This document shows positions 15,457 through 26,433 of a stretch of DNA of 61,299 bases, piece after piece (position 1 is the stretch's first letter; every line of letters begins with the position of its first letter). The notes under the pieces were generated by a model, which made no database searches, was not told where the DNA came from, and saw only the letters and a list, made by a program, of their open reading frames with translations. This DNA is from Myxococcales bacterium (lineage in GTDB: Bacteria > Myxococcota_A > UBA9042), in contig JBBISH010000024.1 in the NCBI GenBank assembly GCA_037441385.1, positions 1-61,299 on the forward strand. The letters run 5' to 3'. Made by a program: the position numbers and the translations under genes.

Positions 15457-15593
15457 GCGCAAAGCTCCGGCGCTGCGTGCGCCTGTGCGGGGTGGTGTGT
15501 CAAACCTGAGGCGGCAAGTCAAGCACTGGCTGCACTTGCGTGGCGCGCCTGTTGCGCTGGGGCCGTGAGCGGCTATCCTTGGCGCTTGCGGAG

Positions 15594-17150
15594 GTGGCCG
15601 TGCTCGCCCAATCCCGGATCCTGGTCGTGGGCAACGACCCCGACATCCTGCAGCAAATTGGCCAAGTGGTGCAGCCGCTTGGGTGCCTGGCGCTGCACGT
15701 CATCAGCGTCGAAGAGCTGCGCCAGCGCTTGGCCGACCTGGCCCCCGACCTGGTGCTGCTCGATGGCGATTCGTCGCTCTGCCGCGAGTCGGACCTGCGC
15801 CAGGGCGTGGTGGACTGCCTGCGCCGTTCGGCGAGCCGGCCGCAAGTGCTGTTGATGTCGCGGGTCGACGACAGCGAGCGCGAGGCGCTGTGGCAGGCGT
15901 CGCAGGCCGACGACCTGATCGATAAGCCCTTGGAACAGCTGGACTTGTTGGTGCGCGTGCGCTCGCTGGTGCGCGTGCATCGCCTGACCACCCAGGTGAC
16001 GCGCGACCGCGACGTGTTGAACGCGCTGTTCGAGCTGTCGACCTTCAGCTCGGATTTTCAGAGCCCGGATGCGGTGTTGCTGGCTCTGACCAAGCGCGTG
16101 GCCGAGTGGACCGGCCTGCACCACGTCGCGGTGACCTTGGGGTCGCCGGGCCAAGCGCGCACCGCCGCCGAGACGCACCACCGGCCAGGCAATCGCGGAC
16201 AATCGTTCTTGGATCGCCGCCATGCCGAGCTGTGCGCCCGCGGCGACATCTGGAGCATCGACGAGGCCGAGGGCGTGCTGGCCGGCGAGAGTTCGGGGTC
16301 GCTGCCCTACATCGGCATCCCACTCAAGACGCAAAGCGGCGAGATTTTGGGTGCTTTGCACGCTTGGGGCGGTGGTCCGCTGCCGTCGGGCCAGCACATG
16401 CGCGTGCTGCGGGTGGCGGCGGAACGGATCAGCACCGAAATTCAGCTGCACGAGAGCAAGCGACGCCTGGAAGAGATGGTCGAGGCGCGCACTTCAGACC
16501 TGACCGCGGCGCTGGAGCGTTTGCGCACCGTCAACACCCAGCTCATCGAAGCGAGCCGCGACACGGTGATGCGGCTGGCGCGGGCCGCCGAATACCGCGA
16601 CGGCGACACCGGCGAGCACGTCGAGCGCATGTCGAGCTACTCAGCGGCGATCGCCAAGCAAATGGGCATTCCGCCAGAGGATCAGGCCCTGCTCAAGCTG
16701 GCGGCGCCGATGCACGACGTGGGCAAGATCGGCATCCGCGACTCGATCTTGCTCAAGCAGGGGCGCCTGACCGCTGAAGAATGGGACGTGATGCGCCAGC
16801 ACCCCACCATCGGCGCCCAGATTTTGGGCGGCTCGCGCTCGCGCCTGCTGCAGATGGCCGAGGAGATTGCCGCCTCGCACCACGAGCGTTGGGACGGCGA
16901 GGGCTATCCGGCGCGCAAACAGGGCGAGGCCATCCCGCTGTACGGCCGCATCGTGGCCCTGGCGGATGTTTTTGATGCCCTGACGACGCCGCGGGTCTAC
17001 AAAGACGCCTGGAGCGTCGAGGACGCCGTCGCGCACATCCGCCGCGAGTCGGGCAAGCAGTTCGACCCGCGGGTCGTCGAGGCGTTCGAGCAATGTCTGC
17101 ACCGTCTGTTGGAAATTCGCGCACAATTCGTCGACTCGCCGGCGGCTTGA
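15594..17150 (+). CDS. Receiver-like/GAF/HD-GYP c-di-GMP phosphodiesterase
   Basis: REC-like N-terminus; GAF-like [44 protein letters not shown] start uncertain. Confidence 0.9.
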
Positions 17151-17755
17151 TCGCCCTGGCCCTGGCGGGTGCGGGCTGTCGGCAGCCGGCGACCACAGCT
17201 GGGTCCGCGGGCAGAGCGGGGCCAGCAGCCAGCGACGTAGGCGCTAGCGCAGCGGTCCCGGACTCGACCTGGCTCGTCCCCAAACCCGAGGCGGCCTTGC
17301 AACTGGGCGGCTGTGGCCGCGCTTGCGAATCACCAGAGTCGGCGGTGAGTTTTTTGCTGACGCAGCTGTCCAGCCCCGACGCCGCGGTGCAGCTGCGGCC
17401 ACTCGTCGACTGGTCGCTGCTGGTGGTCGACGGCCGCGACCTGGGCACGCACTGGGCCATGCAGTGGGCCGATCCCGCCCAGCGCAGCGCGCGCGACGCC
17501 GAGATTGCAGCCTTCTTGACCGAGTGGACCCGCTGGCCCAGCCGCAGCGTGCAAGCCGACGGCTGGGGTCGCATGCGCAGCAACGGCATTCAACTCCGCT
17601 TGCAGGATGAGCAAACTGCGGTGGTACAACTGCGGCATCCGCAACTCCGCGACGATACGACCGAGCCGACGTGGCAGCTGCAGTGGCACAAGCGCGGCAG
17701 CGAGTGGCTGCTCAGCGGCATCGACCACCAGCCCAGTCTGCGGGGCAAGCCGTGA
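17147..17755 (+). CDS. Hypothetical lipoprotein
   Basis: TTG overlaps the upstream TGA; signal with LAGAGC. Confidence 0.6.
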
Positions 17756-18291
17756 AAGTGGCCTTGGTCGCACTGGTTTGGCTGGCGGCATGCGCGTCGT
17801 CGGCCGAACCTGCGCCTGCGAGCACCTGCCGATCGCCCGACCTGAACGCCTGCCCTGCCGGCTATGTGTGCCCCAGCGAGACCGAGTGCCTGGCCACCGC
17901 CGGCTGCCGCGACCACGGCCTGTGCCGCCCCGACGGTGCCGTCTGCGGCGCGGGATGCAGCGCCGACTGCGAAAATGCCCGCGCGTGCCGCTGGTTCGGG
18001 ACCTGCAGCCTGCAGGGCACCGCGTGCGTGGCCGGCAGCGAGGCCGCGTGCCAGCAAAGCGACGCCTGCCGCTGGCAAGGCGAGTGCCACTTGGGCAAGG
18101 ATCCCTCGGGCGGCAGCGCCTGCGTGCCGCTGAGCGACGCCGACTGCCTGGCCAGCGACCAATGCATCCAAGACGGCGCGTGCAGCTTCCTGGTCGGCCG
18201 CTGCCTGGCCGCCACCGCCAAAGACTGCCAGGGCGCGCGCATCTGCAAGGCCTACGGGCGCTGCGCACCCACCTCGGGAACCTGCAACTAG
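17752..18291 (+). CDS. Cys-rich repeat lipoprotein
   Basis: GTGA overlap with the upstream gene; lipobox LAAC; repeated C...C...G.C......C units. Confidence 0.7.
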   Translation: MKVALVALVWLAACASSAEPAPASTCRSPDLNACPAGYVCPSETECLATAGCRDHGLCRPDGAVCGAGCSADCENARACRWFGTCSLQGTACVAGSEAACQQSDACRWQGECHLGKDPSGGSACVPLSDADCLASDQCIQDGACSFLVGRCLAATAKDCQGARICKAYGRCAPTSGTCN

Positions 18292-18305
18292 GTATTGGAA
18301 TCGAG

Positions 18306-19316
18306 ATGATCAAGTACCTTGGCTCCAAGCGGACGCTGCTGGCCCCCATCGTGGCCGCCGTGCAGTCCTTGGGGCCCGTCCGGAGCGTGATCGACCCCTT
18401 CTCGGGCACGGCGCGGGTGGGTCACGCCCTAAAAGGCGCTGGCTTTCAAGTGTTTTCTGGCGACCACAACCGCTACGCCGCCGTGCTCGCGCGCTGCTAC
18501 GTGCAGGCGGACCGGAGCCAGGTGGTGGCCGACTGCGAGCGCTTGCTTGGCGAGCTGCAGGCCCTGCCCGGCCGCGACGGCTGGTTCGTCGAGACCTATT
18601 GCCGCAAATCCCGCTACTTTCAACCGGCCAACGGCGAGCGGATCCAAGCGATGCGCGAGCAAATTGCGGCGTGGAATCTGGATCCCGAGCGCGAGGCGGT
18701 GCTGCTGGTGGCCTTGATGGAGGCCGCCGACCGCGTCGACTCGACCACGGGCGTGCAGATGGCCTACCTCAAGCAATGGGCGAGCCGGTCGTACAACCCC
18801 ATCCAATTGCGCACTCCGGCCGTGCTCGATCGGCCCGCCCAGGGCGGGTGCCAAGCGGCGGAGCTGGACGCGCTGGCGACGGTGCAACACTTCCGCGCCG
18901 ACGTCGCCTACCTGGACCCGCCGTACAACCAGCACAAATACCTGGGTAATTACCATGTCTGGGAGACGTTGATGCGCTGGGACCAGCCCGAGGTCTACGG
19001 CGTGGCGCAAAAGCGCGCCGACTGCCGCGAGCGCCAGAGCGACTTCAACAGCCGGGTGCGCGCCAAGCAGGCCCTGCAAGACGTGATCGATCGCGCGCAA
19101 GTGCAGCACTTCGTGGTCAGTTTTTCGGACGAAGGCTACTTGAGCCGCGACGAGCTGATCGCGATGCTGAGCCGGCGTGGCGAAGTGCAGGCGCTGGCGC
19201 ACGACTTCAAGCGCTACGTGGGCGCGCAGATCGGCATTTACAACCCAGCCGGCGAAAAGGTGGGCAAAGTCAGCCACCTGCGCAACACCGAGTGGCTGTT
19301 CGTGGTGCGCGGCTAG
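18306..19316 (+). CDS. D12-class N6-adenine DNA methyltransferase (orphan)
   Basis: IKYLGSK, SAM-binding DPFSGT, catalytic YLDPPYN. No nuclease gene adjacent. Confidence 0.9.
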   Translation: MIKYLGSKRTLLAPIVAAVQSLGPVRSVIDPFSGTARVGHALKGAGFQVFSGDHNRYAAVLARCYVQADRSQVVADCERLLGELQALPGRDGWFVETYCRKSRYFQPANGERIQAMREQIAAWNLDPEREAVLLVALMEAADRVDSTTGVQMAYLKQWASRSYNPIQLRTPAVLDRPAQGGCQAAELDALATVQHFRADVAYLDPPYNQHKYLGNYHVWETLMRWDQPEVYGVAQKRADCRERQSDFNSRVRAKQALQDVIDRAQVQHFVVSFSDEGYLSRDELIAMLSRRGEVQALAHDFKRYVGAQIGIYNPAGEKVGKVSHLRNTEWLFVVRG

Positions 19317-19322
19317 CGACAG

Positions 19323-21518
19323 CTACTTCGCGGACTGGAACGGCGAAAGCGCGCTCCACACATCCAGATCGGCCAACACCACCATGCCGTCGGGGCGCCC
19401 GAGCGTGTCGAAGTGCGGGGCGCTGCTCACGCCGCGCACCGGCAGCTTGAGCCAGTTGGGCATGCTGAGATCCGCGGTCTTCTTGTCGATCGGCTGCGCG
19501 TCCGCATAGGCGAAATACGCCAGAATTCCGCCAGTAACCAGGCCTGCGGCCGAGCCGGCCAGGTTGGCGCGGATGATGTGATCCGAGTTGGCGGTGAACA
19601 TCGCCGTAAACAGCGAGGCCAAACCTGCGCCCGCCATGCCGCCGAAGTTGGCGCCCGCAAGGATGCGCGGATCGGCGCCGACCAGCGGCGAAACGGCCAG
19701 GGCGCTGACCGCAAGGCCAAGGTCCGAACTGACCAGCACGGTGGTCGCCACGCCGGTTTCGGAGCCACTGTTCATCAAGATCCGCGACCAAAGCGCGAAC
19801 CAAGCGCCCCACACCGCGCCGGTGCTGCCCATGGTGGCCTGCCAGGTGGTCATGTCGGTGTACTGCCCCAGCGCCGCGGCGCCCAGACCGCCCAGGGCCA
19901 GGCCGCTGAGCGCCAAGCCAGGGGCCAGCAGGCTTCGCGAGGACGGACCATTGGATTGGCCCTCGTAGATCGCGCCTATCAATGCACCATGTTCCAGGCC
20001 CAGCAGCGAGCCGATGGGCACGATGGCACGGTCGCCGCCGTGATAGTCGGTCCGCTGGCTGAGCCAGGCGCCGCCGGCCAGGCCCAAGGCGCCGCCGCCA
20101 AGGTGGGCCCACTGGGCGCTGCGGTTGCTGTCCGTGGCCACCATCGTCAGGCCCGCGCCGAGCAGCTTGCCGTACTGGGCGAACATTGCTGTTTCCCATA
20201 CGTTGCCGGGAGTTGGGTCGATCCACTGCGACACGGCGGTCGCGGCAAGTCCGCCCACACCAAAGCCGATCGCGCCCCCCGCGCCCGCGTTGTTCAAGGG
20301 GGCGATGAGGTCGGTCCCCTGGGCGCCAAAATACAGCCCCTCGACCGCACCGTAGCCGATCAACTGCAGATCGCCCGAAGTAAAGTGCAGTTGGCGGGCG
20401 AGTGCCGTGCCCACGCCCACGCCCACCAAGCTCCCGGCCAGCAGCGTGGCGTAGCCCGGGCGCTGGTCTTCGCGGTCGGGCATCAGACCCAGCGCGCCAG
20501 CCACGGCAATCGTGGTGCCCAGACCGATGGCGTCGGCGGTGGCCACGTCGGCGCTGGTCAGGTTCAGCGCGTCGGCCGAGTAGCCCGCCAGCACAAAGCC
20601 GCCCAGTTCGCCCAGCAAGGTCAGGCCAGCGCTCCAGCGGTCCAGGCCCACGTCTTCGTCGGGCACCCGGTCGCCGAATTGGCCGCGCGGGCGGTTGATC
20701 ACACTGCGGGCGCCCAAGTACCCGGCGGCGGCACCCCAGGTCATCGCGCTCATGTAGTAGTGCTGGCGGGCGTTGCTGACCTGGCGGCCAAAGACATAGC
20801 CGGCGCCCGCACCGACCACGCCGCCGGTGATGGCGCCGATCAGGTCGGCCCCGCCGGTGCCCGCGACGGCGCCCACCGACTCCAGGGCCAGGCCGCCGAA
20901 CAGGGCCCCGCCCAAGCTGGCCACCAGCGCCGAGCCGCCCACGCTGGGGACGCCGCGCGCGGCGAGAATCTCGGGATGATCGCGGGCCAAAACCTCTAGA
21001 GCATCGCGGCGCACGCCCATGTCGGCGTCGGCGTTTTGCGCCAGGGTGTACAGAGCTTCGGCGCCGCCGGGCAAGACGTGGTGGCTGAGCGCCGCCAGGG
21101 CTTCGGGGTTCGGGGTGTCATTCTCGAGCCCCTGCGCGACGTCGAGCAGCGCCGCAATCGACCGGCGATCGGCGTAGCGGCTCAGTTCGCGGGCCGCCGC
21201 CTGACGCACCGCGAGCACTTGATCGTGCAGGGCAATGTAGCGCAGCGCCCCGATAGCGCGCGGGTCGCCGCCCAGGTACAGATTGGGCAACGCGGCGCTG
21301 CGCTGACCGGGTCCAGCCGCCAAGGCCGCCAGGATCGGGGCCAGCAAGGCGGCATCCGGTTCAGCCGCGGCGGGCGTCGCGGGGCTGGCCAACTCGCTCG
21401 GCGTGGCGGCTTGCGGCAAGTCGGCCGCCCAACTGGCTGGCGCAAACCCGGTGCAGACCACGACCAAGGCCACGCAAGCCCCTGTCCAACGACCTAATTT
21501 CCTAAAGGAGTTGCCCAT
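19323..21518 (-). CDS. Exported HEAT-repeat protein with a Gly-rich hydrophobic C-terminal region
   Basis: Signal peptide ending ASWA; HEAT-like VRQAAAREL..AIAALL; many Gly-zipper-like helices. Start uncertain. Confidence 0.65.
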   Translation of the reverse strand: MGNSFRKLGRWTGACVALVVVCTGFAPASWAADLPQAATPSELASPATPAAAEPDAALLAPILAALAAGPGQRSAALPNLYLGGDPRAIGALRYIALHDQVLAVRQAAARELSRYADRRSIAALLDVAQGLENDTPNPEALAALSHHVLPGGAEALYTLAQNADADMGVRRDALEVLARDHPEILAARGVPSVGGSALVASLGGALFGGLALESVGAVAGTGGADLIGAITGGVVGAGAGYVFGRQVSNARQHYYMSAMTWGAAAGYLGARSVINRPRGQFGDRVPDEDVGLDRWSAGLTLLGELGGFVLAGYSADALNLTSADVATADAIGLGTTIAVAGALGLMPDREDQRPGYATLLAGSLVGVGVGTALARQLHFTSGDLQLIGYGAVEGLYFGAQGTDLIAPLNNAGAGGAIGFGVGGLAATAVSQWIDPTPGNVWETAMFAQYGKLLGAGLTMVATDSNRSAQWAHLGGGALGLAGGAWLSQRTDYHGGDRAIVPIGSLLGLEHGALIGAIYEGQSNGPSSRSLLAPGLALSGLALGGLGAAALGQYTDMTTWQATMGSTGAVWGAWFALWSRILMNSGSETGVATTVLVSSDLGLAVSALAVSPLVGADPRILAGANFGGMAGAGLASLFTAMFTANSDHIIRANLAGSAAGLVTGGILAYFAYADAQPIDKKTADLSMPNWLKLPVRGVSSAPHFDTLGRPDGMVVLADLDVWSALSPFQSAK

Positions 21519-21726
21519 CGTCGCGGAAGGCGGCATGTCGGTCTCGGCTGCGGGCGGCACTGCGCACGGTGCCGTCATGGTAGGACGGCCAATTGCGGCG
21601 CGAAAGAGCCGGCATTGTCACAAGGTTGTGATGCCTTGGCGCGGTGCTTGCACGCAAACCACGGTCGGGCATGCTGGCCGTGCTGCGCGAACGCCGAACA
21701 TCGACGCGCCGCGAACGGGGGGCCAC

Positions 21727-22497
21727 ATGTGGGGAGCGCTGCTGGGCGACTTGGTGGGGTCCCGCTTTGAGCACAACCCGTACAAAAGCAAGGATTTTGA
21801 ACTCATCACGCCCGCCTGTCGGCTGACTGACGACTCGATCCTGACCCTGGCCGTGGCCGATGCGCTGCTGCATGGTCTGGATTTGGTCGATGCACTGCAG
21901 TCGTGGTGGCGCGCCTACCCCAACGCCGGCTACGGCGGCAGCTTTTATGGCTGGGCGCTCCAAGGCGCGCGCGAGCCCTACGGCAGCTGGGGCAACGGCT
22001 CGGCCATGCGCGTGTCGCCGGTTGGTTGGCTGGGCCGCGACGAGGCTGAAGTCCTTGCCCTGGCTGAACGAACGGCCGCCGTCACCCACAACCACCCCGA
22101 GGGGATTCGCGGCGCCCAGGCGGTGGCGCTGGCCGTGTTCTGGGCGCGCCAGGGCCGGCCCCGCCCAACCCTGCGCATCGAACTGCAGGCGCGCTTTGGC
22201 TACGATCTGCACGAGCGCCTGTCCGACATCGCGCCCAGGTACGAGTTCGACGTGAGCTGCCAGGGCTCGGTACCCCAGGCGTTGCTTGCCTTCTTTGAGG
22301 CGAGCGACGTCGAAGACGCCGTGCGCGGCGCGGTGGCGCTGGGTGGTGATTCCGACACGCAGGCCTGCATCGCCGGCGCCGTGGCCGAAGCGTGGTTTGG
22401 CGGCATTCCAGAGGAGTTGCGGGCAGTCGTGGCTGCACACTGCGACGAGCGGCAGCGGGCCGTCTTGCGCGAATTCGACGCGCGCGTGGTCCGCTGA
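21727..22497 (+). CDS. ADP-ribosylglycohydrolase (DraG/ARH family)
   Basis: G..GD..GS, TDD, SWGNGSAMR, VTHNHPEG, GGDSDT. Confidence 0.92.
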   Translation: MWGALLGDLVGSRFEHNPYKSKDFELITPACRLTDDSILTLAVADALLHGLDLVDALQSWWRAYPNAGYGGSFYGWALQGAREPYGSWGNGSAMRVSPVGWLGRDEAEVLALAERTAAVTHNHPEGIRGAQAVALAVFWARQGRPRPTLRIELQARFGYDLHERLSDIAPRYEFDVSCQGSVPQALLAFFEASDVEDAVRGAVALGGDSDTQACIAGAVAEAWFGGIPEELRAVVAAHCDERQRAVLREFDARVVR

Positions 22498-22542
22498 CCA
22501 CCCCACCGCGACAATTTCTGGCCAAGCCGCTACACTGACGGC

Positions 22543-22722
22543 ATGAACGCGCCGCTCAACCCTGCCCCTCGCCCTACCGTCCCCGGCAAACCCGAAGAAC
22601 CCGTGGCCAATTTGGTCGGCCGCTGGATGATGATCGGTTGCCTAGTGACCTTGGGCGTGATCGCCATGGCCGCCCTGGCCCTGGGCTGGGTGATGGTCAG
22701 CGGCTTGATGGGCCAACGCTGA
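22543..22722 (+). CDS. 59-aa single-pass membrane protein (absent from the ORF track)
   Basis: Hand translation: MNAPLNPAPRPTVPGKPEEPVANLVGRWMMIGCLVTLGVIAMAALALGWVMVSGLMGQR*; GC-rich third codon positions. Confidence 0.55.
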   Translation: MNAPLNPAPRPTVPGKPEEPVANLVGRWMMIGCLVTLGVIAMAALALGWVMVSGLMGQR

Positions 22723-22759
22723 GCCACTCGCCCGCTTGCGCTCGGCCGACCGCGTTCCG

Positions 22760-22925
22760 CTCGAACACCAATCACAAATCTCCGAGGTTCAGAGCAACGA
22801 CTCCACTCGCTGACGAAAACTCGTTGATGCTCAGTGGGTCGCAAGCGGGCCCCCCAGCGCCTAGCACTGGCGCGGCCCCGCCGCGACGTTCGCCCCCAGG
22901 ACTGGGTTTCTGATCGGTGCTCTAG
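22760..22925. mobile_element. MITE-like element A, complete copy
   Basis: Terminal inverted repeats GAACACCAATCACAAA (22763-22778) and TTTCTGATCGGTGCTC (22907-22922) match 13/16, with CTCG/CTAG at the boundaries. First 71 bp recur at 61112-61182 (66/71). Confidence 0.8.
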
Positions 22926-22973
22926 ACCCGACTACAGCGAGCTTGCGGTGCCCCGCGCCACCTACGCGGTCGG

Positions 22974-24908
22974 CTACAAAACGTGTTGCCGCAGCGCCCG
23001 TTGCACGTGCCCAGACAGTTGATACCGGCTGAGCTCGGCCATCGGCATGTGCACGGCCCCGGCGATGGTGCCCAGGCAAGTCGGCTCGCCGCACTGGCAG
23101 GCAAAGGGCTCGGCCATATCCAGCTCGGTCGACGGGTAGAAGAAGGTGATCGGCTCGCCGGGACCAATGTCGTGCAGCAGGCGCACTTCGCGGCGATCGG
23201 TATCGAACACCACCGACGGGGCACAGCTGTGGTTGGCAAAGGCCAGCCAATACGGGTCCAAGATGATGTGTTCGTGCTCGCTGACTTGCACGGTGTAGCG
23301 GCTGGCTTGGGCGCTGCTGGTGTGCGCGCCGATGCGGCTGAGCAAGGTCCCCTTGGCCATGGGCAGGCGGGCGAGCAGCCGGCGGAAGCGATGGCCGCGC
23401 TCGATGTACACCCGCGGATCCAGACCGATATCGTCGCCGAGCGGCGCCGCAAAATGCATGCGTGCAACAAAGTCGCTGACATGGCCGGCATAGGGGCGGA
23501 CCAGCTCGGCGTCCAGGCAGTCGCTGCCTTGGATTTGGCGCCGGCAGTTGGGAGCGCCGCAACTGCAGACAAAGGCCTCCATTTCTGGACCGCAAAACGT
23601 CGCGTATTCCATGGTCAGGGCTTCGCCCGCCGTGATCGGCCGGCGCGCCACCAAGTCCAGACCCTCAAGCCAAGTGTTGGGATCGCAACTGTGATCGATG
23701 GGCTGCCAGTCAGCGGCGCGGTCGGACCACATCACGTGCACGCTGCCCGTAAGCGGCCAGGCGTACTGCTGGAACCAGCGACGATTCAAGGGATTCCATG
23801 CACGCTCGACGTGCCGGCGCGTCACCAAGTGATGCGGCCGCTCTTCGCCCGCGATGACCACCTCGCCAGGAACCAGGTCGCGCGCCGCCACCATGCCGTA
23901 GCCGCGCTGCGGATAGAACTGCACTTTCCATACTTTGCGCAGACTGGCCTGCCGACGCAAGGCCGTGGCCAGGATATGCTCGGCAAAGGCGCGGTGGCCG
24001 CCCGGCGACGCCGCCAAGATCTCGTCGGCGCTGCCGAACTGGCCCGGAGGGTAGAAGATTCCGCAATTGGGATTGATCTCGAGCATGTACAGATTGCCGT
24101 CGCCGTCCATGCGCAGGTCGCAGCGGGCGTAGCCCACGCCGCCCAACGCCGCGAACATCCGCGCCGAAAGATCCCGAAGCCGCTCGCTCAGTTCGCCGTC
24201 CGGCACCGGGCGCGTGGCCATCTGCTCGAACTCGACCCACTTGAGGTCAAAGTGCTTGAACGTTTCGCCGGGCGGGAAGCAGAACTCCACCGGCGTGAAG
24301 GTCCTGGGCACCTGCTCGCCGGCGGCAGGCTCGGCCACTAGCACTGTAAATTCGCGACCCTCGACAAATTCCTCGATCAGCGCCCCGCCGTAGGCCTCTA
24401 GGTTGCGGGCCACGATCGAGCGCAGGTCGTCGATCGAGGTGCAGCGGGCGTCGCGGCCCATGCCGATGCTACCGTAGCTGCACGGATGTTTGACGATCAA
24501 GGGAAAGCGCAGTGCAGCGGCCGCCAAGTCCGCGTCGGCCGGGCTTTGGGCCATCCAGTGCCCCGGCTGACCAATATCGGCGTAGTGGCAGACCCGCTTC
24601 TGGTCTTCGCGAGTGGGCTCGTAGAAGGCGCTGCTGGCACCCGTAAAGGCCTGCCCGGCCTGCTCCAGGGTCTGCACCACTTCGATGCCGGCGCGATCCT
24701 CGTCCCAGGCGCCGTCGCAGAGATTGACAAAGACGTCAAAGCCTTGCCGAATCAACGCGCGCACTTGGGCCACGGCCTTGGCCTTGTCGATGCCGGCATG
24801 GTGCCAGCTGTGCTCGGGGAGGTAACGCGCCGGACTTGCGGCGGGATCCAGGCCCTTGAAGGCCGAGTCGCTCTCGTCGTACGACGAACCAAGTACGCAG
24901 ATTTTCAT
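22974..24908 (-). CDS. Ddl-like ATP-grasp ligase fused to two SET/post-SET domains
   Basis: FPLIVK, GSIG, EEFVEGREFTV, YARCDLR, LEINPN. SET1: GYG..DHSCDPN..EALTMEY..CSCGAPNCR. SET2: NHSCAP..EPITFFY..CQCGEPTC. Confidence 0.88.
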   Translation of the reverse strand: MKICVLGSSYDESDSAFKGLDPAASPARYLPEHSWHHAGIDKAKAVAQVRALIRQGFDVFVNLCDGAWDEDRAGIEVVQTLEQAGQAFTGASSAFYEPTREDQKRVCHYADIGQPGHWMAQSPADADLAAAALRFPLIVKHPCSYGSIGMGRDARCTSIDDLRSIVARNLEAYGGALIEEFVEGREFTVLVAEPAAGEQVPRTFTPVEFCFPPGETFKHFDLKWVEFEQMATRPVPDGELSERLRDLSARMFAALGGVGYARCDLRMDGDGNLYMLEINPNCGIFYPPGQFGSADEILAASPGGHRAFAEHILATALRRQASLRKVWKVQFYPQRGYGMVAARDLVPGEVVIAGEERPHHLVTRRHVERAWNPLNRRWFQQYAWPLTGSVHVMWSDRAADWQPIDHSCDPNTWLEGLDLVARRPITAGEALTMEYATFCGPEMEAFVCSCGAPNCRRQIQGSDCLDAELVRPYAGHVSDFVARMHFAAPLGDDIGLDPRVYIERGHRFRRLLARLPMAKGTLLSRIGAHTSSAQASRYTVQVSEHEHIILDPYWLAFANHSCAPSVVFDTDRREVRLLHDIGPGEPITFFYPSTELDMAEPFACQCGEPTCLGTIAGAVHMPMAELSRYQLSGHVQRALRQHVL

Positions 24909-25203
24909 GGCAGCCGATCCGCGGGCAGCGTGGCAAGCGCCCAAACGGGCGCCAGGGTGACCCAAGCTCCATCACCCTGCAAGCCTGGTGGGCGCCTTTT
25001 GCACCTGGCACCTCGCTGCGGTTGGCACGCAGCCGGCGGGATTCCCAACGCGGGCGTGCTGGTGAAGAGCGGCGGCGCGGCACGGCGCAGGCCACAGAGT
25101 CGCGCGGCGGGGCCGATGAATTTTCTGCAGTTTCGATCCGATTTCGCCGAACTTGGTGTACCCTGCCGCGCGGCCGCACCACGCGCCGTCGAGCCGCACC
25201 TTC

Positions 25204-26433
25204 GTGACAAAATCCCCCGCACCTTCGGCAGTCTGGCTCATGGGCACGTTGCTGGGCCTGCACGGTCTGGTGGTCAAGCTCATCGACGTGACGTCGACGG
25301 CCGGCGTGGTGGCCAAGTCGGGCTCCACGGGCCTCGTGCAGGTGTGGGCGCTGGACGTGCTGATCACCTTGGCGGTCGGCGGTTGGCTCACGCTGCTGGC
25401 CGATCGCGTCCCGCGCGCCAAGTTGCTGCCACGGCTGCTGATTTTGGTAGGGTTGGGCTACGCAGGGGTCACGGCACTGCTGTGGGCGGACGCCGCTCCA
25501 ACCCTGAGCTACTGGCTGTTGTACATGGTCTCCACGGCAGAGGTGGCGTCGATCCCCGTCACGGCGTGGGCCATTGCGGCCGACACCATTGACCCCGCCG
25601 ACAACCTGCGCTGGTTCACGCGCATCGCTGCCGCCGAAAGCATTGCCGATCTAGTGGGTTACATTGTTGCTCTTGGCGCTGGCGAGCTTCGCGGCGTGGC
25701 GGCCCGGCACGACGCCGCAGTGGTGGGACTCAGCGCCGCGATCTCTTTGGGTGCGGCGTGGCTGGCGGTGCGCAGGTTGCCGTCCGGGCAGCCGCACAAA
25801 GACGAGCCGCCGCCGCCCCTTGGCCCCGAGCTGGATCGCACGCCGTGGCTGCGGCCCCTGGTGGTGCGTGTGACCGCTCAGTATTCGGCGTGGGTGGCCT
25901 TGGGCTGGGCGGCGATGCGCGACCTGGAGCTAGAAACCGGCGACGACGAGGGCGGTTTCCGGCGGTGGTACGCGGTCTACTCGCTGGCCTCGACGCTGGC
26001 GGTGCTGATCGGACAGACGCTGCTGCCGCGCTGGCTCGACGGGATTGATCGCTGGAAAGTCAGTATGGTTATGCCCACTTATGTGTTCTTGGCCTGTGCC
26101 GCCGCCGCCGCGACGGGCGACGCGCGGGTGACCCTGACCCTGCTGGGCGGCTACTTTGTGGTGAGTCACGCTGGCGACGCGCCGGTGCGGCGCAGCTGTC
26201 TGGCGGATTTGAACGAAGCGGTGCGCGGGCGCCTGTCGGTGCTGCTGGACGTGCACGCCTATGCCGTCGGTAGTTTGTTGGGCACGGCCCTGGTCATGGC
26301 CGGCGATGCCTGGCTGCCGCGGGGGCGGGCACGAATGGGCGTGGCGATGGCGGCAGTGGGCGTGGCTGTCGTCCAATGGCTGGCGGCGCGCACGGCCGGG
26401 CGCCGGGCCTCCAGGATGCCGAACCCAAGCTGA
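25204..26433 (+). CDS. MFS-like membrane protein (resembles NTT/TLC-type transporter domains)
   Basis: About 12 hydrophobic helices; W.IAAD......RWF..IAA motif. Start uncertain. Confidence 0.6.
   Translation: MTKSPAPSAVWLMGTLLGLHGLVVKLIDVTSTAGVVAKSGSTGLVQVWALDVLITLAVGGWLTLLADRVPRAKLLPRLLILVGLGYAGVTALLWADAAPTLSYWLLYMVSTAEVASIPVTAWAIAADTIDPADNLRWFTRIAAAESIADLVGYIVALGAGELRGVAARHDAAVVGLSAAISLGAAWLAVRRLPSGQPHKDEPPPPLGPELDRTPWLRPLVVRVTAQYSAWVALGWAAMRDLELETGDDEGGFRRWYAVYSLASTLAVLIGQTLLPRWLDGIDRWKVSMVMPTYVFLACAAAAATGDARVTLTLLGGYFVVSHAGDAPVRRSCLADLNEAVRGRLSVLLDVHAYAVGSLLGTALVMAGDAWLPRGRARMGVAMAAVGVAVVQWLAARTAGRRASRMPNPS

Follow-up and report, generated by a model that had tools for sequence, protein, structure and literature searches.

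Does the open reading frame found roughly two-fifths of the way into this window encode a single genuine enzyme, in which an ATP-grasp ligase is joined to two SET methyltransferase domains, and if so, what might such an enzyme make? The window is the whole stretch of DNA that was analysed, 61,299 nucleotides of a contig (JBBISH010000024.1) from a Myxococcales genome. A sequence-only reading had described one 644-residue frame with this domain content, and both points were confirmed, the frame being intact. The gene (P0002, 22974..24908) lies on the minus strand, which had not been given before, and its stop codon is at 22974-22976. There are two alternative starts, TTG at 24965 and ATG at 24908; the ATG gives the protein of 644 residues, and homologues likewise open with MK/R-I/V-C-x-L. 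The GC content by codon position (0.67/0.49/0.81) matches that of real genes of the window (67% GC). Pfam placed Dala_Dala_lig_C at residues 128-283 (4.4e-16; 59.4 bits, cut-off 24) and matched SET (PF00856) twice along the protein (1.1e-13; 51.9 bits, cut-off 22.4), and in the genome search the two SET domains scored 29.1 and 23.4 bits, each above that cut-off. AlphaFold2 modelling of the protein (mean pLDDT 94.7, pTM 0.77) returned the three-module architecture that had been claimed, and this architecture is far beyond chance. An assembly artefact, which would have undone the sequence-only reading, was ruled out by recurrence: the same fusion was found in 6 of the 11 genomes of the genus and at 24 of 79 related loci across several phyla, so it is genuine and conserved.

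The N-terminal module (residues 1-322; 23943..24908, minus strand) is a complete three-subdomain ATP-grasp ligase of the Ddl fold, as judged by Foldseek, VIA and residue alignment. Foldseek matched it to DdlB (8evz; TMt 0.79-0.82, 22% identity). VIA aligned residues 1-325 with DdlA at Z 29.9 (rmsd 2.3 over 296 residues), in a search that used the whole model and in which the well-covered parts were residues 1-323 and the match to BurB described below. The six best Ddl/VanA-type chains had Z values of 25.5-29.9 and Helicobacter Ddl 21.7, while the other ATP-grasp enzymes gave 22-23 (LysX/ArgX), 20.3 (RimK), 15.6 (TTLL11) and 15-17 (graspetide ligases, with MdnC, PsnB and AMdnB at 15.4-16.7). 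The ATP- and Mg-binding residues were retained (K140, E179/E180, K223-W224, R262, D264, R266, E277 and N279), and K140, E179/E180 and E277-I278-N279, which correspond to the K, E and EIN motifs recognized earlier, were kept in 83-89 of 89 aligned homologues. Because the three-subdomain fold (Z 29.9, TMt ~0.8), the ATP-binding Lys/Glu, the omega-loop Lys, the Arg/Asp pair and the Mg-binding Glu/Asn are all shared with Ddl/VanA, the ligase very probably forms an amide through an acyl-phosphate.

The module differs from Ddl in the region expected to bind substrate. We take the D-Ala-binding elements of E. coli DdlB to be the N-terminal GGxSxE loop and the Ser/Leu-bearing loop that follows E-x-N. 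In an alignment with the genome's own Ddl, where the first motif reads GGPSSE, the motif was absent from the ligase module, as the sequence-only reading had said. The stretch aligning with HG..GEDG of Ddl reads NLCDGAWDEDRAG and contains an invariant Cys-Asp, and a family-specific insertion of 9-10 residues, NCGIFYPPGQFGSAD, follows EINPN, where Ddl binds the second D-Ala. On this alignment, both substrate-binding elements of Ddl are remodelled into family-specific conserved motifs. The fused protein was also far below the family cut-offs, scoring 60.7-62.5 bits with TIGR01205 (cut-off 245.65), 59.6 with NF002378 (cut-off 243) and 15 with the RimK model TIGR00768 (cut-off 143.4). A separate true Ddl is encoded on another contig (G000:C118:15449-16450) and scored 256.1 bits, above the TIGR01205 cut-off; the fusion is not the cell-wall ligase, a role that the sequence-only reading had held to be unlikely.

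SET1 and its post-SET cysteine cluster occupy residues 323-485 (23454..23942, minus strand), as located by profile matches and by the Pfam SET domain at 336-435. The module carries D405-H406-S407-C408, Y435 and C448xC450x4C455. Profile comparison matched it best to KMT2A/MLL1 (3e-16 over residues 326-458) and ASH1L (1.4e-12), and all of its closest relatives were protein lysine methyltransferases. The alignment with KMT2A/MLL1 and ASH1L runs across the full SET and post-SET regions, and the His of NHSC, the catalytic Tyr and the four Cys are shared; unlike these proteins, the target has no chromatin-reader or complex-binding parts, and SET1 is bacterial and joined to a ligase. Among 89 homologues, H406 and all four cysteines (C408, C448, C450 and C455) were present in 89 and Y435 in 87. 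The DHS in place of NHS that was noticed earlier proved to be D405-H406-S407, in which Asp replaces the Asn of KMT2A and ASH1L. Position 405 was N in 65 homologues, D in 17 and another residue in 7, and D405 is a recurrent variant because those 17 of 89 sequences share it.

SET2 (residues ~498-644; 22977..23417, minus strand) was matched to BurB by sequence, profile and fold. It carries N559-H560-S561-C562, FFY591PSTE and C604xC606x4C611. The cysteines C562, C604, C606 and C611 were kept in 54-55 of the 54-57 homologue rows having a residue there, and the same counts applied to the catalytic residues, so that the post-SET cluster previously claimed for each SET domain holds for both. The GxG motif, reported earlier as lacking, is indeed absent from the target, which reads RFRRLLARL, but some homologues retain one (GSG in P0044, GVG in P0127). 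Across 14 aligned orthologues, the identity was 48-88% for SET1 and 35-82% for SET2, with the linker falling to 9-20% in the distant ones. Because the catalytic residues and the SET identity are kept while the linker decays, the SET domains are probably not inert, and their inertness was one of the grounds on which the sequence-only reading could have failed.

The nearest solved relative of SET2 is BurB of Burkholderia thailandensis (PDB 9l4t/9l4v), with 27-36% identity. A phmmer search against 9l4t gave 1.8e-14 over residues 516-633, a profile search gave 8.4e-18, and VIA gave Z 15.4 (135 aligned residues 488-624, rmsd 3.6, 27% identity). According to PMC12542666, BurB is a SET-domain enzyme that S-methylates free methionine in the DMSP/malleicyprol pathway and binds it through main-chain atoms; it stands on its own as a tetramer and belongs to a polyketide cluster, whereas SET2 is a ligase-fused domain in the target. 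Of the residues that the paper names around the substrate and SAM, Y124 (an aromatic Tyr) and H93 of BurB correspond to Y591 and H560, and the Y-x-STE...FxCxCG...C segment is shared; S88, H72, R133 and H138 are replaced by L555, Y538, E600 and Q605 in the sequence alignment, and the Leu preceding the His by Asn. BurB binds Met via the main chain, and therefore such matches and mismatches of residues cannot decide the substrate of SET2. Stand-alone SET2 genes, of ~170-200 residues compared with 172 for BurB, have the same SET2 signature as the fused enzyme. By these similarities SET2 is BurB-like and so close to a methyltransferase acting on a free amino acid.

The enzyme belongs to a family with relatives in at least 10 phyla, which occur in fused, two-domain and split forms; across phyla the enzyme is 50-55% identical. 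The view that this was an undescribed system stood in so far as no characterised example was found, but it has to be changed in scope, as the family is very large and widespread and not a local oddity of this genome. Members carry generic names in databases. At the 79 related loci, SET2 was fused in 24, encoded by a separate gene immediately upstream in 14, located elsewhere nearby in 2 and missing from 38, and in 4 of 5 genomes checked among the last, no other copy was found. SET2 is not the core activity because of this absence; the conserved family core is the ligase plus SET1, to which SET2 is an accessory, either part of the same protein, encoded by its own gene or missing. At L078, a cluster of the Chlorobium ferrooxidans type, SET2, the ligase-SET1 protein, an ABC exporter and a small SET protein are encoded together, and cultured bacteria with the gene include Hyalangium versicolor and a Chlorobium strain. 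Two metagenomic proteins, P0213 and P0269, join the same ATP-grasp domain to a C11 (clostripain-type) peptidase. In Gammaproteobacteria, a secreted C11 peptidase was observed close to the cluster at three loci: Pfam identified it in L034 and L037, and clustering showed fragments of it in L041.

Gene-context analysis points to transport. Upstream of the enzyme gene, a divergent intergenic region (24909..25239) separates it from a transporter-like gene; a search for sigma-70-like promoters gave no matches in 22300-25400, a range that includes this region. The divergent gene (P0273, 25240..26433, plus strand) encodes a polytopic membrane protein of 397 residues with the fold of MFS transporters, as its Atlas match to TLC/MFS_1 clusters (score 0.98), its AlphaFold2 model (pLDDT 85.1, pTM 0.86) and the Foldseek matches of that model to VMAT2 (TMq 0.69-0.71) and AtNTT1 (0.78) indicate. 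The divergent pairing was found in four related genomes (G000, G005, G007 and L021) and not elsewhere in the genus; between L021 and the target, the enzyme is 61% identical and the membrane protein only 35%. P0273 is a candidate product transporter in this lineage.

In other lineages, an ABC exporter immediately adjoins the enzyme gene at 17 of the 79 loci, and these 17 span five phyla (Gammaproteobacteria, Chlorobi, Planctomycetota, Acidobacteriota and Acidimicrobiia). The linked exporters consist of ABC_membrane and ABC_tran, with a C-terminal cNMP-binding domain in 5 of 7 scanned; at least two lineages are represented, only 31-37% identical to one another. No ABC exporter was found near the gene in this genome, where the best match, 35% identical, lies on another contig. 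Orthologues of the genus that are 55-63% identical had no neighbours in common, and comparison of the related loci gave no further neighbour conserved family-wide apart from the transporters, as expected for a self-sufficient enzyme. Neighbours specific to single lineages were seen in Bryobacteraceae, Caldilineales, Anaerolineae and Planctomyces loci (thymidine kinase, GcvT-like, Nfu, Asparaginase_2 and AdoHcy hydrolase, among others). The AdoHcy hydrolase was scanned in one Planctomyces locus and clusters with the upstream gene in three more. Like a membrane Spermine_synth protein noted at loci L039 and L064, it is at most a lead.

From architecture, folds, conservation and adjacency, we infer the chemistry, the order of steps, a small-molecule substrate and transport. 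The reading we prefer, held tentatively and at somewhat short of an even chance, is a self-contained cytoplasmic ligate-and-methylate enzyme whose product, a small methylated amino-acid conjugate, is carried across the membrane. The Ddl-fold ATP-grasp domain would turn a carboxylate into an acyl-phosphate and couple an amine, with substrates other than D-Ala and D-Ala. SET1, of the KMT2/ASH1 type with a zinc-binding post-SET region, would use SAM to methylate a lysine-like primary amine of the substrate or product, possibly repeatedly, and the BurB-like SET2 would put a further methyl on an amino-acid-like part. The product, dipeptide-like or aminoacyl-amine-like, would be moved across the membrane by dedicated ABC exporters in many other lineages and here by the divergently encoded MFS-fold candidate. 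The N-methylated peptide or amide proposed by the sequence-only reading likewise stays a best guess. In a bolder form of the small-conjugate reading, possible but doubtful, a single polypeptide would serve as the whole pathway, independently of any NRPS, and would make a new class of amino-acid conjugates that are permethylated (quaternary-ammonium or sulfonium) and exported; horizontal transfer would have spread the family among at least 10 phyla of bacteria from soil, freshwater and the subsurface. One such compound might be an aminoacyl-lysine or an aminoacyl-diamine, with a SET domain of histone-methyltransferase type working on the small molecule to methylate its terminal amine.

Enzymes of similar logic are known. 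Ngg of the NAGGN osmolyte pathway (GNAT plus ATP-grasp) and glutathionylspermidine synthetase/amidase each unite, in one polypeptide, an ATP-dependent amide ligase and a second domain that further modifies the small conjugate so formed or undoes it. The likeness to the target is one of logic; the second domains are an acetyltransferase or an amidase and not SET.

Several observations count against the preferred reading, namely the protein-directed relatives of SET1, the C11 fusions and neighbours, the 62 of 79 loci without an adjacent ABC exporter together with the lack of one near the gene in this genome, the occurrence of the MFS pairing in four related genomes only, and the low identity and replaced residues between SET2 and BurB. 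In the strongest alternative, which we consider unlikely but a real contender, a specific protein or carrier protein would receive an amino acid on one of its carboxylates from the ATP-grasp domain, as happens with RimK, LysX/ArgX and TTL, and the SET domains would methylate lysines of that protein. The resemblance of SET1 to KMT2A and ASH1L is in line with this, and C11 fusion or proximity could point to peptide or protein substrates. The Ddl likeness may also be compatible with a protein substrate, as LysX/ArgX and RimK are the next-best folds after Ddl and LysX/ArgX lie only a few Z units lower. Against it, the Z values of most Ddl/VanA-type chains are clearly above those of every protein-modifying ATP-grasp enzyme, the RimK score is about a tenth of its cut-off, the nearest relative of SET2 works on a free amino acid, and no candidate target gene is conserved next to the enzyme, the recurrent neighbours being exporters. 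The logic of such a bacterial system would parallel that of eukaryotic TTLL12 (SET-like plus TTL), a weak feature-space neighbour (0.80). TTLL12 combines SET-type and ATP-grasp-type domains, as the target does, but in the reverse of the target's order of ATP-grasp then SET and with an ATP-grasp of TTL and not Ddl type, and according to the abstract of PMC3520985 it catalyses neither reaction. The TTL domain (PF03133) gave no Pfam match in the 644-residue protein.

An improbable alternative is RiPP-like maturation, in which the ligase and the SET domains would tailor a small precursor peptide exported by the ABC transporter. The best sub-threshold similarities of the ABC exporters include bacteriocin and NHLP exporters, and both kinds of enzyme, ATP-grasp ligases and methyltransferases, are known to tailor RiPPs. 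However, none of 314 small ORFs (18-75 residues) around the 17 ABC-linked loci was matched between lineage groups, although very short or fast-evolving precursors could escape such a comparison, and the Pfam scan found no peptidase domain in seven linked ABC exporters. The folds of graspetide ligases are far from that of the ligase module (Z 15-17 compared with 29.9), and the cross-phylum identity of the enzyme is unusually high for RiPP tailoring. Sulfonium metabolism is very improbable. Under this reading SET2 would be a BurB-like methionine S-methyltransferase, and S-methylmethionine would be conjugated by the ligase or feed DMSP-type chemistry. BurB is the best solved match of SET2, and the Y-x-S-T-E ... 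F-x-C-x-C-G signature is common to both, but their identity is low, S88, H72 and the 'LLH' of BurB are replaced while SET2 retains the Asn of NHSC, and SET2 is missing from nearly half of the loci. Finally, the protein could be a second ligase for cell-wall D-Ala-D-Ala (or D-Ala-D-X), redundant or alternative, whose SET domains are vestigial, or the fusion could be an assembly artefact. The best family-level matches of the N-terminal part, which are Ddl models, might point that way, but this reading is refuted for practical purposes by a score of a quarter of the Ddl cut-off, the separate Ddl, the replaced D-Ala-binding loops, the conserved SET catalytic residues and the recurrence of the fusion.

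In the literature searched, we found no published work on a family of ATP-grasp and SET fusions, in agreement with the earlier statement that no characterised example was known; an earlier domain survey might list the architecture. TTLL12 was the sole protein with SET and ATP-grasp domains in the portions of the literature available, and a word search of the available text of a review on bacterial SET proteins (PMC3980110) gave no mention of a ligase or ATP-grasp fusion. Work on thiohistidine dipeptides (PMC13674229), checked as possibly related, was found to be unrelated. BurB alone, among the literature found, is a small-molecule SET enzyme with a structure.

To our knowledge, SET domains are almost always taken to methylate lysines of proteins, histones above all. 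Should the product prove to be a metabolite, a large bacterial family that combines KMT2-type and BurB-type SET domains with a Ddl-type ligase and is repeatedly paired with exporters would widen the known SET chemistry and would offer a compact, readily expressed route to methylated dipeptide-like compounds, which may serve as osmolyte, signal, metal-binding or antagonistic molecules. If the target is a protein, the family would represent a new bacterial two-mark modification system. Under either reading, the names 'D-alanine--D-alanine ligase' and 'protein-lysine N-methyltransferase' are probably wrong for thousands of the database entries that now bear one or the other.

The minus-strand open reading frame (ORF) of the enzyme gene runs from a TTG codon at 24965 down to the stop codon at 22974-22976, and the ATG at 24908, which gives a 644-aa protein, is likely the start codon because homologues share the same opening, MK(I/V)C(V/I)L. 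A single ORF of this length had been proposed in the sequence-only reading, and all the motifs named there were present: K140, E179/E180 and E277-I-N279 in the ligase part, D405-H-S in SET1, and a CxCx4C cluster after each SET domain. As also stated there, SET2 of the window copy lacked GxG. The codon-position GC of the ORF (0.67/0.49/0.81) matched that of real genes of the 67% GC window. Pfam matches exceeding the cut-offs covered residues 128-283 as Dala_Dala_lig_C (4.4e-16) and two separate stretches as SET (1.1e-13), and the AlphaFold2 model, with 89 homologues as input, was very confident (mean pLDDT 94.7, pTM 0.77).

In this model, a complete D-alanine--D-alanine ligase (Ddl) fold is predicted to span residues 1-322. 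The ligase part matched Pseudomonas DdlB in Foldseek (TMt 0.79-0.82, 22% identity) and DdlA in VIA-align (Z 29.9, rmsd 2.3, 296 residues). The six best Ddl/VanA-type chains reached Z 25.5-29.9 and one Helicobacter Ddl 21.7 in VIA-align, followed by LysX/ArgX (22-23) and RimK (20.3), and then by L-amino-acid ligases (about 19.5-19.9), PylC (18.6), and graspetide ligases (15-17). Assignment of the enzyme as Ddl was rejected, with 60.7 bits versus the Ddl model cut-off of 245.65, and a true Ddl (256.1 bits) was found on contig C118 of the source genome. Aligned with this Ddl, the enzyme retains the ATP and Mg residues but lacks the GGxSxE loop, as had been noticed earlier, carries NLCDGAWDEDRAG in place of the HG..GEDG of Ddl, and inserts 9-10 residues after EINPN, where Ddl holds the second D-Ala. 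Within the stretch that replaces HG..GEDG, residues N62-L63-C64-D65-G66 are nearly invariant.

Family-profile comparisons matched SET1 plus its post-SET to KMT2A/MLL1 (3e-16) and ASH1L (1.4e-12), and SET2 to BurB, a Burkholderia thailandensis SET-domain enzyme (8.4e-18). BurB was also the best match of the whole protein in a single-sequence search (1.8e-14), and the fold search agreed with these sequence searches (Z 15.4, 27% identity, residues 488-624). BurB, a SET enzyme of 172 residues, S-methylates free methionine and binds it via main-chain contacts (PMC12542666). SET2 shares with BurB an aromatic Tyr (BurB Y124, here Y591) and a Y-x-S-T-E ... F-x-C-x-C-G segment, but the positions S88, H72, R133, and H138 of BurB are changed and the Asn of NHSC is retained. 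The catalytic residues of the ligase and SET1 are kept in 83-89 of 89 aligned homologues, the four SET1 Cys in all 89, and the SET2 residues in 54-55 of the 54-57 alignment rows having a residue there. Among 14 aligned orthologues compared, identity was 48-88% for SET1 and 35-82% for SET2, and fell to 9-20% in the linker of the more distant ones. By these measures, the enzyme is evidently not decayed. In a search of the source genome, the two SET domains of the enzyme were the only ones found.

The fusion occurs as full-length orthologues (55-87% identity) in six of the 11 genomes of the genus, source genome included. A word-indexed search gave 1440 proteins at E <= 0.001 among 8000 candidates scored; among the matches listed, 118 of 120 contained both PF07478 and PF00856, and the database names were only 'SET domain-containing protein-lysine N-methyltransferase', 'D-alanine--D-alanine ligase', and 'hypothetical protein'. 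In an exhaustive search of 50%-identity representatives, 300 proteins matched at E <= 1e-30, a number that rose to 1903 at E <= 1e-10. From 420 stretches coding for a relative in one-genome-per-species contigs, 79 loci were retained, whose record titles placed them in Myxococcota, Acidobacteriota, Planctomycetota, Chloroflexota, Chlorobi, Gammaproteobacteria (Methylococcales), Gemmatimonadota, Rhodothermales, Actinomycetota, Spirochaetota, and Rokubacteria. A few loci came from cultured strains (Chlorobium ferrooxidans DSM 13031, Chlorobium sp. KB01, Hyalangium versicolor, and Anaerolineaceae bacterium BD1), and the commonest known phyla in extra Atlas clusters were Bacteroidota and Euglenozoa. 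A midpoint-rooted FastTree phylogeny of the ligase-SET1 part placed the enzyme in a clade of fused proteins from Myxococcota; elsewhere phyla are intermixed, as horizontal transfer would predict.

Ligase, SET1, and SET2 were fused in 24 of the 79 loci, a separate SET2 gene lay directly upstream on the same strand in 14, and SET2 was nearby in another arrangement in two. Another 38 loci had ligase-SET1 with no SET2 in the fetched flanks (<=8 kb per side, truncated in one locus where the contig ends), and one was partial. Searching five two-domain genomes with the SET2 profile returned only SET1 itself in four (about 1e-11 to 1e-12) and a strong match on another contig in Hyalangium. The family core is therefore evidently ligase plus SET1, with SET2 a frequent accessory, fused or split. 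Two fused loci carried tandem three-domain and two-domain copies (L022:8001-11481 and L084:6750-9914), and at L088:8001-11203 a ligase-only copy adjoins a ligase-SET1 copy, and the opposite strand holds a SET2-like stretch. Other fusions among 47 scanned representatives were SET2 ahead of the ligase (P0146, P0202), a second ATP-grasp (P0150, P0227), multi-SET proteins (P0125, P0244, P0251), and, in two metagenomic proteins, a cysteine peptidase of the clostripain type (C11) joined to the family ligase (P0213, 943 aa; P0269, 824 aa). Many related Myxococcota genomes carry Ddl-like ATP-grasp genes in tandem pairs, with 30-35% identity to the ligase part of the enzyme (for example L092:10412-12252 on the minus strand, G005:C1:2829-4461, G024:C116, G014:C209); the pair at L092 directly adjoins the fused gene, and such pairs may be a separate two-ligase system.

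ORFs neighbouring the 79 loci were called and clustered, and recurrent ones were scanned for domains. The sole partner recurring across phyla was a half-size ABC exporter (ABC_membrane plus ABC_tran), with a C-terminal cyclic-nucleotide-binding domain in five of seven scanned. It directly adjoins the enzyme gene in 17 loci: three from Gammaproteobacteria, six from Chlorobi, two from Schlesneria, five from Acidobacteriota, and one from Acidimicrobiia. Chlorobi and Gammaproteobacteria exporters are 62-67% identical, the Planctomycete, Acidimicrobiia, and Acidobacterial ones 41-67% among themselves, and the two sets only 31-37%. The pairing evidently arose or was retained more than once, because the exporters fall into at least two lineages; by NCBIfam they are generic MsbA-related proteins under every cut-off. 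Small SET genes, of differing types, follow the exporter in six Chlorobi loci (one by Pfam, the others by clustering and tblastn) and two Acidobacterial ones; in a third Acidobacterial locus, such a gene follows that of the fused enzyme. A C11 peptidase adjoins the exporter in three Gammaproteobacterial loci, identified by Pfam at L034:11780-13093 (minus strand, signal-peptide-like N-terminus) and L037:9266-10471 (minus strand) and by clustering of fragments at L041. Two Acidobacterial loci carry, directly upstream of the fused gene, a gene (L039:5748-7955 and L064:5745-7955, plus strand) whose 735-aa product combines about 13 hydrophobic segments with a Spermine_synth domain, a possible polyamine link. 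In four Planctomyces loci, an AdoHcy hydrolase is divergently upstream.

A genome search found no ABC exporter near the enzyme gene in the source genome, and within the genus neighbours were common only to the two closest genomes. The divergent 397-aa neighbour (25240-26433) had no Pfam match; a language-model atlas grouped it with TLC/MFS_1 clusters (0.98), and its confident predicted fold (pLDDT 85.1, pTM 0.86) matched the MFS transporters VMAT2 (TMq 0.69-0.71) and AtNTT1 (0.78), so that a transporter is indicated on several counts. A search of 41 related genomes at E <= 1e-10 recovered it from the source genome, G005, and G007 alone, with a weak match in G018. Its gene is divergently paired with the enzyme gene in the source genome, G005, and G007, and also at locus L021, whose copy is only 35% identical. 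Also in the window, the gene at 15540-17150 (plus strand; 93-97% identical in G007 and G005) joins a response-regulator-like receiver, a weak match (4e-4), to an HD_5 domain of the HD-GYP type (1.8e-34). At 17607-19316 (plus strand; G007 81%, G005 66%) lies a 569-aa ORF with a D12-class N6-adenine DNA methyltransferase domain only at residues 237-515 (Pfam 4.3e-31), its N-terminal ~235 residues having no family match. The gene kept downstream of the enzyme gene (19323-21578, minus strand; G007 86%, G005 64%) encodes 751 residues rich in Gly and Ala, with an N-terminus resembling a signal sequence, many hydrophobic stretches, and no Pfam family. The convergent ADP-ribosylglycohydrolase gene (21403-22497, plus strand; Pfam 1.1e-35) is present in G007 and probably unrelated to the enzyme gene, because it is missing from the corresponding place in G005.

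The best fit, which we hold tentatively, is a self-contained enzyme whose ligase would join two non-D-Ala substrates by an amide bond, with the substrate or product methylated on one or more nucleophilic atoms to give a small compound that dedicated transporters would handle. The Ddl-type fold, the kinship of SET2 to BurB, fusion and fission, the lack of a conserved protein partner or precursor, and transporter adjacency argue for it; the kinship of SET1 to protein methyltransferases, the C11 peptidase fusions, and the lack of a defined substrate weaken it. Modification of a protein or carrier protein is the strongest rival, if an unlikely one. RiPP-type peptide maturation is improbable, as none of 314 small ORFs tested was common to the ABC-linked lineage groups and no precursor peptide was found among them. 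SET2 and BurB are related but not orthologous, and sulfonium (SMM-type) chemistry is slightly more doubtful again. A Ddl paralogue or an artefact is highly improbable: the sub-cut-off score, the separate true Ddl, and the kept catalytic residues argue against ddl function with inert SET domains, and the orthologues within the genus against an assembly artefact, both of which the sequence-only reading had raised against itself.

A basic, lysine-like or diamine-like substrate is weakly hinted at, as leads only, by the conservation of an acidic stretch, DGAWDEDR, by the likeness of SET1 to lysine methyltransferases, by the association with C11 peptidases (clostripain prefers Arg), and by the upstream Spermine_synth and AdoHcy hydrolase genes. 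In the literature on ATP-grasp with SET domains, TTLL12 was the only published combination found and no publication characterising the present architecture was seen, as had been anticipated; broader literature searches yielded no further case, although an earlier in-silico mention may exist. The family brings together enzyme superfamilies that are known, in a combination that is undescribed, widespread, and apparently sufficient by itself.
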